Positions 33,941 through 45,029 of a stretch of 64,000 nt of DNA are shown one piece after another. The number at the start of each line of letters is the position of its first letter. The stretch's first letter is position 1. The position numbers and the translations under genes are program-made. Under the pieces are notes generated by a model. The model was given only the letters and a program-made list of their open reading frames with translations. It ran no database searches and was not told the origin of the DNA. The stretch is from an uncultured Caldithrix sp. (GTDB lineage: Bacteria; Electryoneota; AABM5-125-24; Hatepunaeales; Hatepunaeaceae), in NCBI GenBank assembly GCA_964355675.1, contig CAYHEC010000017.1, positions 4,310 to 68,309 of the forward strand. The letters run 5' to 3'.

Positions 33941-34018
33941 GCACCCCGGTAGCTCAATAGGATAGAGTCCCACCCTCGTAAGTTGGAGGTTGCGGGTTCG
34001 AATCCAACGTGGGGTGCG
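33941..34018 (+). tRNA. tRNA-like gene (candidate tRNA-Thr, anticodon CGT), irregular
   Basis: 7-bp acceptor GCACCCC/GGGGTGC, D-arm GCTCAATAGGATAGAGT, T-loop GGTTCGAATCC, anticodon loop CTCGTAA; spacing irregular (4 nt between acceptor and D-stem, weak T-stem). Confidence 0.5.
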
Positions 34019-38517: not shown

Positions 38518-39585
38518 ATGATTGAATATATTCGACTTAAAAACCTGACAGCATTCAAAAACTTTGAATGGAAGGCCACCGGCGCTTTGAATGGTAAAGA
38601 CGCAGGTGCGTTGAATGTTATTGTTGGGATAAATGATACAGGCAAAACCCACCTTCTAAAATTCCTCTATGCTTTTGCAAAAAGTTATGAGGGACATTCG
38701 AAGGGTGGGATTGGCTCAGGCTCATGGGCGAAACTTCTTGCAGACAAGCTTCTAAAGGTATTTTTGCCTCACGCGGACGCATTGAATTCCTTGATAAGTA
38801 ATGGTGCACCTCGTTTGGATTCATATATCCGTTTCAATGATGAAAATTTGCATTTTTCCTTTGGCAAAGATACGACCTCGACTATTACTGATTGCGAGAG
38901 TTATATCAAACCTGATAAAGAGCTACGGGTTCTTTTCTTTCCTCCAAAAGAAGTGCTTACAACACATCAGGCACTCACGGCGCTATTGCAAGACTCCGAT
39001 TATCAATCATGGGGATTCGATGCAACCTATTACGACTTGATTGATGCACTTAGGAGACCAGGGGCGAAAGGTAATGTTAATAAGAGTCTTACAGATTCTA
39101 AAGTTAAGCTTGAAGAGTTATTGAACGGACACTTCGAGTACATAAATGACAATGAGTTCCTGTTCTATCGAACTGGAGCTAAAGAGCCATCAAGGATGTG
39201 GCAAACTGCAGAAGGATATAAGCGTATCGGTATTCTTACTCTCCTCGTGAATAGCCGTTGGATTCGTAAGGGTTCAATCCTATTTTTCGATGAACCGGAA
39301 GCCAACCTACATCCGATGGCAGCGAGGGTAATGGCACAAATTCTATTCAATTTTGCACAAGCGGGCGTTCAGATCTTCCTTTCAACGCATAGCTATTTCA
39401 TTCTCAAACAACTTGAGTTGTTGGCACGTAAAGAGGATTTCAGTATCCCCACATGTTCGCTTGTCAAAGGAGCTTCAGGTATTGAGGCAATTTTCGCTAA
39501 CCTCAAGAATGGAATGCCTGAGAATTCTATTGTAGATGAATCGGTTGCTATGTTCGAGGAAGATCTTCAACTTGAATTGGAGTAA
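38518..39585 (+). CDS. ABC/AAA_21-type ATPase (defence-system-like)
   Basis: Walker A GINDTGKT, Walker B ILFFDEPEANLHP, H-loop LSTHS; 355 aa; AT-rich relative to flanks. Confidence 0.7.
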   Translation: MIEYIRLKNLTAFKNFEWKATGALNGKDAGALNVIVGINDTGKTHLLKFLYAFAKSYEGHSKGGIGSGSWAKLLADKLLKVFLPHADALNSLISNGAPRLDSYIRFNDENLHFSFGKDTTSTITDCESYIKPDKELRVLFFPPKEVLTTHQALTALLQDSDYQSWGFDATYYDLIDALRRPGAKGNVNKSLTDSKVKLEELLNGHFEYINDNEFLFYRTGAKEPSRMWQTAEGYKRIGILTLLVNSRWIRKGSILFFDEPEANLHPMAARVMAQILFNFAQAGVQIFLSTHSYFILKQLELLARKEDFSIPTCSLVKGASGIEAIFANLKNGMPENSIVDESVAMFEEDLQLELE

Positions 39586-39590
39586 CAACT

Positions 39591-40127
39591 TTGAATCTTA
39601 AATGGCACGACGATGAGTCAGGTGTAGAATTAGGTCTCCCCGACAAGGATCATTTTCGATTTCAGGACTGTGAAGCCTATAATAAGGTGAAAGGAATGGG
39701 AATCAAGGAGATGGATTTCTGCTGGTGGAATCAAACGAAGGATTCTATCTATTTACTAGAAGCATTAGACACCAAGAAGGATTCATCTCAGGAAATATTA
39801 CTCAAAATTGTTGTAAAGGGTTTGGACAGCTTACTGTTATTGTTAGCTGTTTGGATGGATACAAGGTTCGGTGAAAGTTTGGGTTCGGAATTACCCAAAT
39901 CCTTTCCAACAGCAATTCCAACGAAATTCATATTTATTTTCATTTTACGGACTCGATCAGGCCATGCGGTAAGTTCGGATAAAAAAGGGCAATTTGCACC
40001 TTATCAAGATAAAGCAAGGTCCAGACTCCGTAGTCGATTAGGTCTCTTTTCTGGGAATCCAAGATTAGTAATTGATGATAAAGAATCAATTATAAGAATC
40101 GCTCTTGGTGATGCTGTGATTAGATGA
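39591..40127 (+). CDS. Hypothetical 178-aa protein, partner of the ATPase
   Basis: 5-nt gap after the ATPase gene; same AT-rich composition; no recognisable family. Confidence 0.45.
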   Translation: MNLKWHDDESGVELGLPDKDHFRFQDCEAYNKVKGMGIKEMDFCWWNQTKDSIYLLEALDTKKDSSQEILLKIVVKGLDSLLLLLAVWMDTRFGESLGSELPKSFPTAIPTKFIFIFILRTRSGHAVSSDKKGQFAPYQDKARSRLRSRLGLFSGNPRLVIDDKESIIRIALGDAVIR

Positions 40128-41197
40128 CTAATAAGACACCCGTTCGCGCCCTCGCCCTCCTTTCCGGCGGTCTCGACTCGACTCTTGCCCTTCGCTTGAT
40201 CCACGATCAGGGGATCGAGGTGACAGCCCTGAATTTTCACACCGGATTCTGCTTCACCGACGCACGGCGCGCCACCCGAAAACCCACCCAGTCAGCCACC
40301 GATGGTGATACTCGCGAATCTGGTGGACCATCCGACGCGCTCTCCGCCGCGGCGAAATTAGGCATTCCCATCGAGGTGATCGACATCTCGAAGGGTTACC
40401 TCGAAGTCCTTCACCACCCACAATATGGCTATGGAAAGAACGTCAACCCCTGTGTCGATTGCCGTATTCACATGTTCAAGCAGGCGCGGGAGCTTATGTT
40501 GGAGGTCGGCGCCGAGTTCATTTTCACCGGTGAAGTGCTCGGTCAGCGCCCAAAATCACAACATCTTCAAGCATTACATCTAATTTCCGACCAATCAGGT
40601 CTTTCAGATAGGCTTCTGCGACCGCTTTCGGCTCTACTTTTGCCACCGACACTCCCCGAACGGGAGGGATGGATCGATCGCTCCAAGCTGATGGGCTTTC
40701 ACGGCCGGACGCGCAAACCGCAGATGGCGCTTGCCGCTGAGCTTGGCATCGAGGGTTATCCGCAACCTGCGGGCGGATGTTGTTTTCTCACCGATCCTCA
40801 GTACGGTCGAAAAGTCCGGGATATGTGGGAGCATTCGATTAAGGATGAAATGGAGTGGGAGGATTACCTCATGCTTAAGGTTGGCAGGCACATTCGGTTG
40901 AGCGACGCCGCTAAAGTCGTCGTCGGTCGTGATGAAGGCGAGAATCTGTTTCTCGAACAATTCCCGGGCAATAATATCCGCCTCGAAGTAGCCGATTTTC
41001 CCGGTCCGGTAGCGCTCTTTGTCGGCGAACATTCTGATGATCTTCTCTTTAAGGCGGCAAGAGTAGTCGGAAGGTATTCTGATGGCCGAGACAAGGGAGT
41101 CGATCTAAACGTTTTGGTACAGAACGGAAAAGACTTGAAAAAGATAGTTGTCAGGCCTTTTCAAGCTGAGGAGGTACAGGATTGGGTGATAAGTTAG
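40124..41197 (+). CDS. PP-loop tRNA thiolase, MnmA/ThiI superfamily
   Basis: PP-loop LLSGGLDST; NPCVDCRIHMFK (compare MnmA NPDILCNKEIKFK); TGEVLGQRPKSQ (ThiI-like); CCFLTD; 357 aa. Confidence 0.6.
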   Translation: MTNKTPVRALALLSGGLDSTLALRLIHDQGIEVTALNFHTGFCFTDARRATRKPTQSATDGDTRESGGPSDALSAAAKLGIPIEVIDISKGYLEVLHHPQYGYGKNVNPCVDCRIHMFKQARELMLEVGAEFIFTGEVLGQRPKSQHLQALHLISDQSGLSDRLLRPLSALLLPPTLPEREGWIDRSKLMGFHGRTRKPQMALAAELGIEGYPQPAGGCCFLTDPQYGRKVRDMWEHSIKDEMEWEDYLMLKVGRHIRLSDAAKVVVGRDEGENLFLEQFPGNNIRLEVADFPGPVALFVGEHSDDLLFKAARVVGRYSDGRDKGVDLNVLVQNGKDLKKIVVRPFQAEEVQDWVIS

Positions 41198-41472
41198 GGC
41201 GCTTGAATCGTGATCGAGCGCTATTTGAGCCAAATGCCCGCCGGAAATTGGTGGAGACTCTTTCTCAAGCCAATCCGGAAATTATTGCCAGAGTTATCAT
41301 CAAGGCATTGGAGATGCAAATTCTAACTGAGGATTATAGTCGAGACTGCGGCGTCGATTTTTCCCCTGAAAGTCTGTCCCGCTTCCAGAGAGAGAATTTT
41401 GCAGAAATCGAACAACACCTTGAAAGAGCTATCGGTGGTTTTGTTGGGGGTATCGTCTCGCAAGAGGGTTAA
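41182..41472 (+). CDS. Small hypothetical protein (96 aa)
   Basis: TTG start with upstream GAGGAGG; overlaps the PP-loop gene end; no family. Confidence 0.35.
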   Translation: MGDKLGRLNRDRALFEPNARRKLVETLSQANPEIIARVIIKALEMQILTEDYSRDCGVDFSPESLSRFQRENFAEIEQHLERAIGGFVGGIVSQEG

Positions 41473-41564
41473 TTCCAAGTCTCCGAATACCCGCTACCGC
41501 CCCGCCATAGTCGGCAGAGAAAAAAGCCCACTGCCGACCCGCCGTGGTCGGCAGGAAGCTTAAG

Positions 41565-41660
41565 AGAGCCGCTGTCACACGTCCCGGGTTAATAAAGTGC
41601 TGCTGTCACACGTCCCGGGTTAATAAAGTGTTGCTGTCACACGTCCCGTGTGACAGCCCT
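41565..41660. repeat. Tandem ~31-bp direct repeats (2.6 copies) ending in a palindrome
   Basis: (c)tgctgtcacacgtcccgggttaataaagtg x2, then gctgtcacacgtcccgtgtgacagc. Confidence 0.8.
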
Positions 41661-41700
41661 AATAGCAGGCAGACGAAGGCGTCTGCCTGCAGGCTGATTA

Positions 41701-42282
41701 TTGCAAAAGTTATTATTACATATCTGCTGCGCGCCAGATGCGTCGGTTGCCGTCGAAAGACTGCGCGACCGCTATGATCTGACCGGTTATTTCTATAATC
41801 CCAATATAGAGCCACTTACCGAATATGCTCTTCGGGAAGCAGAGGCTCGACTGCTCTCAGCAGTACTCCATTTCAAGTACCTTGAGACTCAACCACTTCG
41901 TGACGAGTGGTTTGAACTCTGCTCTCCCTTTTCCTCCGAACCCGAACGAGGTGAGCGTTGCCGCGTTTGCATTTCTCACCGTCTTAAAACAACAGCCCAA
42001 TGCGCTGTTGTTCATGGAATTACCCATTTCACAACAACTCTTACTACTTCTCCACATAAAGACGTTGACTTCATCCACGAAACTGGCGAAATTTTGGCAA
42101 ATGAATTCGGACTGATCTATCTTCCCGAGACATTTCGCGCGCGCGATGGATTTCGGCGCAGTCTCGAGCTTTGTCGGGAATACAATTTATACCGCCAGAA
42201 CTACTGCGGATGTCGCTGGAGTCAGAGAAATGGCGAACGTGTACTGCCCAAAGAGTCTGATATCATCGTTCGCAGATCATGA
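41701..42282 (+). CDS. queH: Epoxyqueuosine reductase QueH-like (DUF208)
   Basis: LLLHICCAP...YFYNPNIEP...QNYCGC; TTG start. Confidence 0.65.
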   Translation: MQKLLLHICCAPDASVAVERLRDRYDLTGYFYNPNIEPLTEYALREAEARLLSAVLHFKYLETQPLRDEWFELCSPFSSEPERGERCRVCISHRLKTTAQCAVVHGITHFTTTLTTSPHKDVDFIHETGEILANEFGLIYLPETFRARDGFRRSLELCREYNLYRQNYCGCRWSQRNGERVLPKESDIIVRRS

Positions 42283-43508
42283 ATTCGCTTCCGATCATCC
42301 TCGACGGCAGACCGGAGACATACTCCGATCTAGTTAACAAGGCCATCGCGGGGGCAATGGAAATCACTCGCGCCTGGCGTGAGGGCCGGGGGGATGAGGA
42401 AGCGGTCAACCAGATTGAGTCCGACGCTCGCCAAGCTGTCCGTCGAGCGTTCGATCTGCCGAATGATTGCCGGATTATATTCACTTCTTCAATTGAGGAA
42501 GCTCGGAATAGTGCCATCAAGGGGCTTGCATGGGGAGCCGGAACCAGCAGGAACGGGATAATTACCGTCGAAGGCGATCCAGCGGGGTTTGAGGAGTCGG
42601 CGATCTGGCTGGAGCGGTTTGGCTTCCGTTCGATACGGCTTCCAGTCGGAAAAGCCGGAGGGATACCTTTTCCATTGCTTGACAAGTCGGTCGATGACCG
42701 GACGGCTGTGGTGGCGTTACTCTCCACGACTCCCGAAATGTACCGCTGGCGGATACCTGAGATTCGCAAGCTGATAGCCTCGTGCGAAAGGCATGGGGCT
42801 GAATTAGTTATCGACGTTTCGGTTGAAGTGCAAGTGAAACGAATGGAATACGACTCCTCAAAAATGACACTGCTTTGCGATGGAGTTACTCTTGGCGCGC
42901 CGATTGGCGTGGCGTTTGTGGCGCTGAGACCCGGAGCCCGTTTCGGCCCATTGGTCAGCGGAGGCCTTGAGCAGGACGGTTTGCGAGCTGGAAGACTTAA
43001 CCCAGCGCTGGTTGCGGGACTTGCCGCCGCGGTGATGGAGAACGTTTCTTCTGCCGACCCCCTGCGGTCGGCAGCCAGTGGCGTTTCTTCTGCCACCCCC
43101 CCGTGGGTGGCAGCGAGTGGCGGTTCTTCTGCCACCCCCCCGTGGGTGGCAGCACTTTCCACCCTCCGCCAAACCGCCCTTCGTGAGCTTCGCCGCCGTA
43201 TTCCCTCCGCGAGGCTTGTCCATGGCGAAGCCCCCCTGCCGGTCGGGATCACCTTCGTCGTCCCCGGCGTCGAAGGCGAGGCGGTAGTGATGCTCTGCGC
43301 ACAAGAGAACGTCTTCGTCTCGACGGGATCGACCTGTTCGAAGAAGGCGGGCAAACCCTCGCCGGTACTCCTCGCCGCAGGTTTCACGACCGAGGAGGCT
43401 TCCGGGGCGATAGGGTTGACATTCCGCGCCGGGCAGACGGTTGAAGATGTGAAAATGGCGATGGAAGTTATTGGGAAGGCGGTATTAAAACTGATGGAAA
43501 TAGGATGA
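42279..43508 (+). CDS. Cysteine desulfurase-like (class V aminotransferase fold) paralog lacking the PLP lysine, with in-frame hairpin-repeat insertion
   Basis: C-terminal VSTGSTCS active-Cys loop present, but the SxHK PLP motif is replaced by LLCDGV; two 39-bp tandem palindromic units encode SGVSSATPPWVAA x2. Confidence 0.6.
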   Translation: MNSLPIILDGRPETYSDLVNKAIAGAMEITRAWREGRGDEEAVNQIESDARQAVRRAFDLPNDCRIIFTSSIEEARNSAIKGLAWGAGTSRNGIITVEGDPAGFEESAIWLERFGFRSIRLPVGKAGGIPFPLLDKSVDDRTAVVALLSTTPEMYRWRIPEIRKLIASCERHGAELVIDVSVEVQVKRMEYDSSKMTLLCDGVTLGAPIGVAFVALRPGARFGPLVSGGLEQDGLRAGRLNPALVAGLAAAVMENVSSADPLRSAASGVSSATPPWVAASGGSSATPPWVAALSTLRQTALRELRRRIPSARLVHGEAPLPVGITFVVPGVEGEAVVMLCAQENVFVSTGSTCSKKAGKPSPVLLAAGFTTEEASGAIGLTFRAGQTVEDVKMAMEVIGKAVLKLMEIG

Positions 43509-43525
43509 CTGAAATAGATTTTTCA

Positions 43526-43590
43526 GGCGGGCGTCCTCGTCCGCCGAAGACTAAAGCACGAATTAGACGCAGACGAAGACGTCCGCGTGA
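43526..43590. repeat. Family B element (first hairpin intact, second degenerate)
   Basis: ggcgggcgtcctcgtccgcc ... gacgaagacgtccgcg. Confidence 0.55.
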
Positions 43591-43760
43591 ATTATTCAAA
43601 GAAATCTTGTGGTGACTGAAGCAATCGGTCACTATATACGATCACAAATCGATCACGCCTGAATCCCTTGTCTGTCAGGCTTTCCCGGGCTTCGGTGACT
43701 CAGTGATCGATTTTTGACCCCTCCGTCCTCTCATTAATCATCAATCATTAGTCATTATAA

Positions 43761-45029
43761 ATGATCTACTTCGACAATAACGACACTACGCCTCTCCACC
43801 CTGAGGCACTCGCGGCGATGATGCCCTACTTCACCGACAAATTCGGCAACCCCTCATCACTGCACACACTCGGTCTTGAAGCTGAGACCGCTCTCGACGA
43901 GGCGCGCGAGACCATTGCCTCCGCAATCAGCGCTTCGCCCAAAGAGATTGTCTTCACATCCGGCGCGACCGAAGCTAACAACCTTGCCATCCTCGGCGCG
44001 GCTCGCGCTCGCCCTGACCGCAAGCACCTCATCATCTCTGCCGTCGAGCACGCCTCTGTCCTGCAGATCGCCAAACGGCTCGAAGGCGAGGGCATCCGCG
44101 TTACGAAGTTGCCCGTCGATGGGCAGGGGTTCGTTTCGTCAGACACACTCCGCGATGCGCTTGACGACGACACCTTCCTCGTCAGTATAATTTACGCCAA
44201 TCACGAGATTGGCACGATTCAGGACTTAAAAACCCTCGCGGCGATTGCTCACGAAAAGGGAGCCTGGGTCCACACCGACGCCGCGCAAGCGCTTGGCAAG
44301 ATCCCTTGCGACGTGAAGGAGCTTGGCGTTGACCTTGCTTCGTTCAATGGGCACAAACTGCACGGGCCTAAAGGAGTCGGAGCGCTATACTTCAGTCGCA
44401 AATGCCGCCCGAAACGGCTGATGGAAGGCGCGGCTCAGGAGAACGACCTCCGCCCGGGGACTGAGAACGTCCCGGCGATTATAGGATTTGCCAAGGCCGC
44501 TGAAATCGCCGTTCGGGACAGGGAAGAAGTGACCAATCACGTCAATCGGCTGGTGAAACGGCTGGCAGATGGACTTTCGGAGTTGCCACACACGCGTCTT
44601 AATGGGCCACCGCCGGGGACACCCCCCGACACCTTGGAGGGCGGACTTCAGTCCGCCCCACTGCATGTTCCTCAAATGACTCGTCTTCCCGGTAATCTCA
44701 ATGTCACCTACCTTTACATCGAGGGCGAAGCAATACTAATGCACCTCTCTAACCGTGAGATAGCCGTCTCTTCGGGGAGCGCCTGCTCGTCGAAGTCGCT
44801 CGTGCCGTCATCAGTGTTGACGTCCATCGGCTTGATCCATGAGGAAGCTCATGGCGCGATACGGTATTCCCTCTCAAGGTTCAATACGATAGAAGAAGTC
44901 GAGACGGTCATCGTGAAATCTCGTGAGGTGGTGGAACTGCTTAGAGCGATGACGGCATTCGTGCCAGAGCTTCACTCTGAGCGTGAGGGGGGGGAAGGCT
45001 TCTATCGCAGTCGCGATAAAACGACTTGA
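43761..45029 (+). CDS. nifS: Cysteine desulfurase (NifS/IscS family) with an in-frame family A palindrome insertion
   Basis: SFNGHKLHGPKGVGALY (PLP Lys) and SSGSACSS (active Cys); insertion at 44633-44660 encodes DTLEGGLQSAPL. Confidence 0.8.
   Translation: MIYFDNNDTTPLHPEALAAMMPYFTDKFGNPSSLHTLGLEAETALDEARETIASAISASPKEIVFTSGATEANNLAILGAARARPDRKHLIISAVEHASVLQIAKRLEGEGIRVTKLPVDGQGFVSSDTLRDALDDDTFLVSIIYANHEIGTIQDLKTLAAIAHEKGAWVHTDAAQALGKIPCDVKELGVDLASFNGHKLHGPKGVGALYFSRKCRPKRLMEGAAQENDLRPGTENVPAIIGFAKAAEIAVRDREEVTNHVNRLVKRLADGLSELPHTRLNGPPPGTPPDTLEGGLQSAPLHVPQMTRLPGNLNVTYLYIEGEAILMHLSNREIAVSSGSACSSKSLVPSSVLTSIGLIHEEAHGAIRYSLSRFNTIEEVETVIVKSREVVELLRAMTAFVPELHSEREGGEGFYRSRDKTT

Follow-up and report, generated by a model that had tools for sequence, protein, structure and literature searches.

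In a 64-kb stretch of DNA from an uncultured Caldithrix sp. (contig CAYHEC010000017.1; the whole stretch that was analysed is called the window), a plus-strand gene at 42279-43508 encodes a 409-residue protein that has the fold of the cysteine desulfurases NifS and IscS, has lost the pyridoxal 5'-phosphate (PLP) site of these enzymes and retains their active-site cysteine loop. This PLP-less protein belongs to a monophyletic subfamily that is under purifying selection and is kept in conserved synteny with the gene for a ThiI-type PP-loop protein carrying a C-terminal NFACT-R domain (ThiI-NFACT-R). Since it is conserved, selected and always located beside a predicted tRNA-thiolating enzyme, we regard it as a repurposed pseudo-enzyme and not as a dying copy. 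By analogy with Archaeoglobus fulgidus IscS, its Cys loop may serve ThiI-NFACT-R and QueH as a non-catalytic adaptor in the handling of Fe-S clusters or sulfur, a reading to which we assign a probability of roughly 0.45.

Loss of the PLP site and retention of the cysteine loop

The original prediction for this locus held that the PLP lysine had been lost. Three independent alignments (BLASTP against the neighbouring NifS, phmmer against PDB chains, and MAFFT/hmmalign) agree in placing Thr204 (nucleotides 42888-42890, within LLCDGVTLGAP) at the PLP-lysine position, which is Lys199 in the SFNGHK199 motif of the neighbouring NifS (SFNGHKLHGPKG). The loss had in fact been understated. At ten diagnostic positions the PLP-less protein reads E-P-D-V-(gap)-V-T-R-C-G and the neighbouring NifS T-H-D-Q-S-H-K-T-C-R, leaving the Asp and the loop Cys as the only residues in common. 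The replacements extend beyond the lysine to the stacking His, the Gln, the two Thr that bind phosphate and the Arg that binds substrate, the contacts to PLP and substrate being those of the E. coli IscS structure. A GDPAGF segment (residues 99-104) stands where the EH motif sits in desulfurases. The whole PLP and substrate site, and not just the lysine, is gone. With the lysine and five other contacts missing, the usual internal aldimine therefore cannot form, as had been proposed. The cysteine loop, also recognised from the outset, is present as STGSTC353S (43320-43340).

The fold-type I, aminotransferase class V architecture is kept. Aminotran_5 (PF00266) matches at only 1.4e-12, and the protein scores 120 bits against the NifS equivalog TIGR03402 (cutoff 530) and 84 bits against the IscS model (cutoff 643). 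Its AlphaFold2 (AF2) model has a predicted local distance difference test score (pLDDT) of 75.7, dropping below 50 in an interdomain loop at residues 259-286. In Foldseek, NFS1 and the IscS proteins of A. fulgidus and E. coli match this model at template modelling (TM) scores of 0.76-0.84. The best sequence match in the PDB, as identified by phmmer, is A. fulgidus IscS (7.8e-25), with entries 4eb5, 4hvk and 4r5f at the top.

A role in Dnd or Ssp defence was considered for the PLP-less protein and rejected: the DndA and SspA matches reported by PADLOC are explained by homology among desulfurases in general, and the vicinity encodes no partner from a Dnd or Ssp system.

A rare subfamily under purifying selection

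The PLP-less protein belongs to a rare subfamily, intact and selectively maintained, that is found in Calditrichota-like bacteria and comprises some 15-20 sequence clusters. A search of 5.8 billion proteins returned six relatives at 42-63% identity, after which identity drops to 28% or less. An exhaustive profile search yielded about a dozen clusters (at 50% identity) scoring 234-602 bits, against a plateau of ~176 bits for ordinary desulfurases, and in a later profile search the scores fell from 452 directly to 202 bits. The lysine is missing in all 15 aligned members, with the His, Gln, two Thr and Arg likewise replaced throughout; the loop Cys is kept in 14. GD[PHQS]xG[FWI] takes the place of the EH motif in every member, and 21 columns are invariant across the 15.

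Several motifs specific to the subfamily (GDPxGFxE, DG, Q232, R236 and K359) are invariant, or nearly so, exactly at the former PLP contacts. Such a pattern would fit a pocket neofunctionalised as a binding site for a new ligand or metal, or a regulator that senses the status of sulfur or iron and takes no direct part in transferring sulfur or clusters. We consider this improbable, as the ancestral element most strongly kept is the Cys loop together with the adjoining GKPSxVL segment, which points to thiol chemistry.

The subfamily was monophyletic in 40 of 40 bootstraps of a neighbour-joining (NJ) tree calculated for 78 taxa with the ten diagnostic columns masked. Its sister group, in 30 of 40 bootstraps and on long branches, is made up of other Lys-less IscS-like proteins (P0087, the nearest relative, P0069, P0070 and others), which is weak evidence that loss of the lysine predates the subfamily. 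As to common descent with the archaeal Lys-less clade, hidden Markov model (HMM) scores against the Lys-less set exceeded those against Lys-containing sets by only 10-40 bits. The annotation 'cysteine desulfurase' is clearly over-applied: 56 of the 219 NifS-like sequences gathered (about a quarter, in a set biased towards Lys-less proteins by its retrieval with a Lys-less profile) are without the PLP lysine, and many of these carry that name. Further examples are P0008, P0010, P0012, P0027, L064:4125-5363, L098:2052-3239 and P0128, the last of which carries S-N-D exactly as A. fulgidus IscS does.

An origin as a paralog of the adjacent NifS, as originally proposed, is not borne out. The two proteins share 28% identity (BLASTP), and the subfamily, with its nearest relatives among the Lys-less proteins, is not sister to the NifS of the window; a recent tandem duplication is thereby ruled out. 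The accompanying suggestion of a decaying duplicate finds some sympathy in the data, since the PLP-less gene is the fastest-evolving of the cassette and a repetitive extragenic palindromic (REP)-like tandem repeat has expanded within its open reading frame (ORF). Between the window and L001, identity is 42% for the PLP-less protein, compared with 83% for ThiI-NFACT-R and 70% for QueH. However, the ORF is free of frameshifts and internal stops, and no lineage shows a disrupted orthologous ORF, even where identity is as low as 30%. The nonsynonymous divergence (dN) of 0.28-0.69 lies far below the synonymous divergence (dS); as dS is saturated in all pairs, an exact dN/dS is not derivable and the values of 0.13-0.25 are upper bounds only. 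The invariant columns described above, the conserved translational coupling to queH, and the position of the repeat, in frame and in a disordered loop, likewise speak against decay. Pseudogenisation is rejected on the basis of the intact ORFs together with the low dN, and we regard a decaying duplicate of any kind as very improbable indeed. Constraint is relaxed relative to the operon enzymes, yet is clearly present.

The repeat itself (plus strand, 43043-43153; identified by Tandem Repeats Finder as 2.8 copies of 39 bp) encodes VSSADPLRSAASG, VSSATPPWVAASG and GSSATPPWVAA within the disordered interdomain loop, and has a minimum free energy of -67 kcal/mol. Each 39-bp unit holds a perfect hairpin with a 9-bp stem, CTGCCGACC-N6-GGTCGGCAG. 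The three hairpins within the ORF lie at 43051-43074, 43090-43113 and 43129-43152, and in copies 2 and 3 two stem positions have changed in a compensatory manner. Further instances of this hairpin are found at 41531-41554, in the spacer upstream of queH, and in relatives at L034:3174-3197 (intergenic) and at L037:866-889 and 902-925, the latter two inside the orthologous loop of P0007, a protein of 46% identity. The number of matches expected by chance is 0. The hairpin thus has the look of a REP-like element for which the disordered loop has more than once been a landing site.

An antisense ORF of 374 codons (minus strand, 42263-43387) overlaps the PLP-less gene. Its translation has a high content of S, A, R and P, and the ORF most probably owes its existence to the high GC content (55.6%) of the sense gene.

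Gene neighbourhood and candidate partners

Five genes, all on the plus strand, occupy 40124-45029, with ORFs exactly where the original prediction had placed them. The ThiI-NFACT-R gene (40124-41197, 357 residues) is overlapped at its stop by 16 nucleotides of a DUF2018-like gene (41182-41472, 96 residues). An enlarged spacer of 228 nucleotides (41473-41700) separates the latter from queH (41701-42282), the corresponding spacer being 0-74 nucleotides in relatives. In addition to the REP-like hairpin, this spacer holds a 31-bp tandem repeat (2.5 copies, 97% matches, 41571-41648) and two further hairpins, extending up to 41694; it gave no Rfam match. The ATG of the PLP-less gene overlaps the stop of queH (ATGA), and a gap of 252 nucleotides precedes the gene for a canonical class-I cysteine desulfurase, NifS/MisS-like (43761-45029, 422 residues). 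Nothing credible was found in the spacers in the way of a riboswitch or other known RNA. The only Rfam match of the window is a tRNA (33943-34016, 34 bits), upstream of a syntenic EF-G / HIT / fumC / thiI block. The fumC-like gene and thiI, which adjoin each other in L036 and L040, are separated in the window by a pair matching the candidate defence system HEC-02 in PADLOC (HEC-02A at 38518-39585, 4.3e-94; HEC-02B at 39591-40127, 6.5e-28), an AAA_15/AAA_21 ATPase with a 178-residue partner at a local GC content of ~44%. Type IX secretion system (T9SS) sorting domains are also encoded near the locus and, along with the NCBI names of relatives of the DUF2018-like protein, assign the window to Calditrichota-like bacteria.

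Conservation of this arrangement was assessed in 11 lineages with usable flanks (the window, L034/35/42, L006/7/44, L036, L001, L040, L004/45, L041, L047, L048/49 and L118). ThiI-NFACT-R followed by the DUF2018-like gene lies upstream of the PLP-less gene in all 11, even with the neighbouring ThiI diverged to as little as ~56% identity; co-occurrence with the PP-loop gene in other genomes, which had been put forward as a check, is therefore the rule. QueH is found between the DUF2018-like gene and the PLP-less gene in 8 of the 11, and the start/stop overlap of queH and the PLP-less gene is conserved. The canonical NifS follows directly in only four lineages (window, L034/35, L040 and L041); a fifth, L006, has it at a distance of ~3 kb downstream. 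There, a HEPN_LA2681 gene and small ORFs (L006:9439-11004) stand between the PLP-less gene and nifS, a second accessory insertion in the operon. No canonical NifS is near the PLP-less gene in L001, L036, L048 or L118, and in L004/L045 the place of NifS is taken by an IscU gene, which overlaps the PLP-less gene at its stop codon; IscU accompanies the PLP-less gene in L004/L005/L045 only. The constant partners are thus ThiI-NFACT-R and the DUF2018-like gene, and not an active NifS. The earlier suggestion of a regulatory or scaffolding partner for the canonical NifS holds up in so far as a non-catalytic partner is reasonable, but NifS is not the partner that the synteny singles out.

The PP-loop protein, previously described as MnmA/ThiI-type, is indeed of that class and can be assigned further to the ThiI+NFACT-R (DUF814) family. 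Its N-terminal HUP domain is of the MnmA/ThiI type, and Pfam matches comprise NFACT-R_2 (1.4e-23), tRNA_Me_trans (5.6e-11) and ThiI (1.6e-9). The PP-loop reads SGGLDS (residues 14-19), an HGRTRKPQ motif is found at residues 193-200, and five Cys (Cys43, C110xxC113 and C219C220) are invariant in 7 orthologues. The PP-loop, the Cys set, the GRxRxxQ motif, the NFACT-R domain and the lack of THUMP and rhodanese domains all agree with the family as set out in PMC4075521. TusA, a typical neighbour of the family, is not encoded at the window locus. ThiI-NFACT-R is predicted to be a tRNA thiouridine synthetase.

The 96-residue protein, left unassigned by the original prediction, has no Pfam match at the default threshold (15.2 bits against PF09442, gathering cutoff 25); all four relatives tested match this family (best 9.7e-7), so that the protein can be described as DUF2018-like. 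Among its 42 homologues, some are named 'DUF2018 family protein [Calditrichota]' by NCBI. In an alignment of 26 sequences nearly all are exactly 96 residues long, ALELQI is shared, Glu44 and Gln46 are invariant, and the C-terminus reads IVSQEG in 24 and IVSQES in two; no conserved Cys is present. The AF2 model (pLDDT 87) is all-helical, with five helices. A Foldseek search of the PDB returned nothing at E<1, and a profile search against the PDB gave matches at chance level only.

QueH, an epoxyqueuosine reductase, is a proven [4Fe-4S]+Fe enzyme. The QueH of the window scores 191 bits against PF02677 (cutoff 23.5; 2.1e-56) and matches Thermotoga maritima QueH (7lc5) at 5.8e-31. Its HICCAPDAS motif had been called atypical; it is canonical, as 7lc5 reads HVCCAPD at this position, and deposited variants alter precisely that Asp. 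The metal-ligand set is complete, with HICCAPD at residues 7-13, CxxC at 87-90 and CGC at 169-171. The canonical NifS (Aminotran_5, 1e-78) keeps the full catalytic set of Thr, His97, Asp173, Gln176, Ser194, His198, Lys199, Thr234, Cys342 and Arg368, and scores 445 bits against TIGR03402, under the equivalog cutoff of 530. It also carries a Pro-rich insertion of 25 residues (PPPGTPPDTLEGGLQSAPLHVPQMT; 44607-44681) and a C-terminal extension (44960-45029), neither of which is present in reference desulfurases.

A scan of metagenomes with a ThiI-NFACT-R profile gave 73 loci, which were annotated with home-made profiles. At loci with at least 56% identity that reach past the thiI stop, the DUF2018-like gene is always downstream, as it is in L076 (46%). 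These loci also carry the PLP-less gene wherever the contig continues; the one exception, L051, encodes QueH, IscU and a NifS with the lysine. At loci of 53% identity or less, TusA lies downstream of ThiI-NFACT-R and IscU frequently upstream, in agreement with Burroughs and Aravind (PMC4075521). TusA and the DUF2018-like gene are never found together downstream of ThiI-NFACT-R. At three loci, L064, L098 and L117, ThiI-NFACT-R adjoins other Lys-less IscS-like genes in which the His is kept. L064 and L098 also encode both IscU and TusA; in L117 the gene, for P0069, which has V-T at the H-K position as in the window protein, overlaps thiI in the presence of TusA. Lys-containing NifS neighbours occur in L051, L079/83 and L080.

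The mutual exclusion of TusA and the DUF2018-like gene bears on a possible persulfide relay or heterodimer with active NifS, in which Cys353 would take up a persulfide and pass it to ThiI-NFACT-R, the PLP-less and DUF2018-like proteins together filling the part of TusA. The conserved Cys loop and the canonical NifS encoded directly downstream in four lineages, or 3 kb off in a fifth, would suit such a scheme, as would the transfer of persulfide from IscS to TusA and ThiI described in PMC4075521. However, canonical NifS is not nearby in L001, L036, L004, L048 and L118, a conserved Cys is missing from the DUF2018-like protein, and the Lys-less IscS-like genes of L064, L098 and L117 coexist with TusA, hence no replacement has taken place there. 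We hold a relay to be the main rival of the adaptor reading, and less likely than it.

The adaptor reading draws on the loss of the PLP site with the fold and Cys loop kept, the purifying selection, the monophyly and the conserved synteny, as well as on the IscU gene of L004/L045, the Lys-less IscS-like genes beside ThiI-NFACT-R in L064, L098 and L117, and the five invariant Cys of ThiI-NFACT-R. The pseudo-desulfurase keeps the mobile Cys loop and the C-terminal domain but would no longer bind PLP or cysteine. Cys353 would hold or hand over a nascent Fe-S cluster or sulfur, in the manner of A. fulgidus IscS. The clients we infer are the cysteine-rich ThiI-NFACT-R, a predicted [4Fe-4S] enzyme, and QueH, both of which the adaptor would mature or supply. 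The source of the sulfur would be the active NifS next door or sulfide from the surroundings. Several points weigh against this reading. No IscU was found in the 64-kb window by tblastn, nor is one encoded next to the PLP-less gene in most lineages. One subfamily member, P0059, has Tyr in place of the loop Cys. Remodelling of the PLP pocket goes beyond the lysine, which is not the case in A. fulgidus IscS, and has brought the new conserved motifs GDPxGF and DGxxLGxP, which may mean a different function. The dN of the PLP-less protein is 2.5-4.4 times that of its operon neighbours, a weaker constraint than for an enzyme. Finally, the need of ThiI-NFACT-R for a [4Fe-4S] cluster is presumed from what applies to TtuA-type enzymes and archaeal ThiI. 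More speculatively, and with the odds against it, PLP-less IscS-fold proteins, here in their most degenerate form, and the DUF2018-like protein might be dedicated partners of ThiI-NFACT-R. In anaerobes they would make up a module, not recognised before, that delivers sulfur or Fe-S clusters for the thiolation of tRNA (and for maturing QueH), replaces the TusA/IscU arrangement of other lineages and uses the desulfurase fold as a pure Cys-loop carrier.

Comparison with known systems

Lys-less IscS proteins occur in a few anaerobic archaea, where their role is still debated. The closest parallel is A. fulgidus IscS (AF0564; PDB 4eb5, 4hvk and 4r5f), which has Asp in place of the lysine and no desulfurase activity, and whose loop Cys is the fourth ligand of the [2Fe-2S] cluster in the IscS-IscU complex (PMC7585200, PMC13066941). 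Methanosarcina acetivorans IscS1 is likewise without the lysine (PMC7585200, PMC13066941). The window protein resembles A. fulgidus IscS in its class-I desulfurase fold (Foldseek TM 0.82-0.84), in the replaced PLP lysine and retained active-site Cys loop and, in one lineage (L004/L045), in an IscU gene that follows directly. In contrast, the remaining PLP constellation (T-H-D ... S-N-D, as in P0128) is preserved in A. fulgidus IscS and in the proteins that resemble it, whereas the window subfamily is without the His, the Gln, both Thr and the Arg. The latter is also bacterial, only ~23% identical, usually not adjacent to IscU, and fixed in a tRNA-modification operon.

The second point of reference is the predicted 4-thiouridine pathway of ThiI+DUF814 (NFACT-R) proteins, for which Burroughs and Aravind (2014, PMC4075521) describe neighbourhoods with TusA and, in some lineages, an IscS-like protein and IscU. 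The PP-loop gene of the window shows every hallmark described there. The window differs from these neighbourhoods in that a DUF2018-like gene occupies the TusA position, QueH has been inserted, and the neighbour of IscS type has lost its PLP site; a Lys-less state of the IscS-like neighbours is not mentioned in the passages of the paper that were consulted. DUF2018-like and PLP-less IscS-like partners are added to a ThiI-NFACT-R thiouridine pathway that is itself a prediction.

With canonical NifS, IscS and MisS, the window protein shares homology over its full length, including an alignable Cys loop and C-terminal domain, but it is without the residues for PLP chemistry. In this bacterial subfamily nothing is left of a working PLP site, but selection maintains the gene and it is physically tied to two tRNA-modifying metalloenzymes, which offers a clean genetic context for asking what the desulfurase fold does without desulfurase chemistry. 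Set beside the archaeal proteins, the window protein is a new and more degenerate, bacterial variant of PLP-less IscS.

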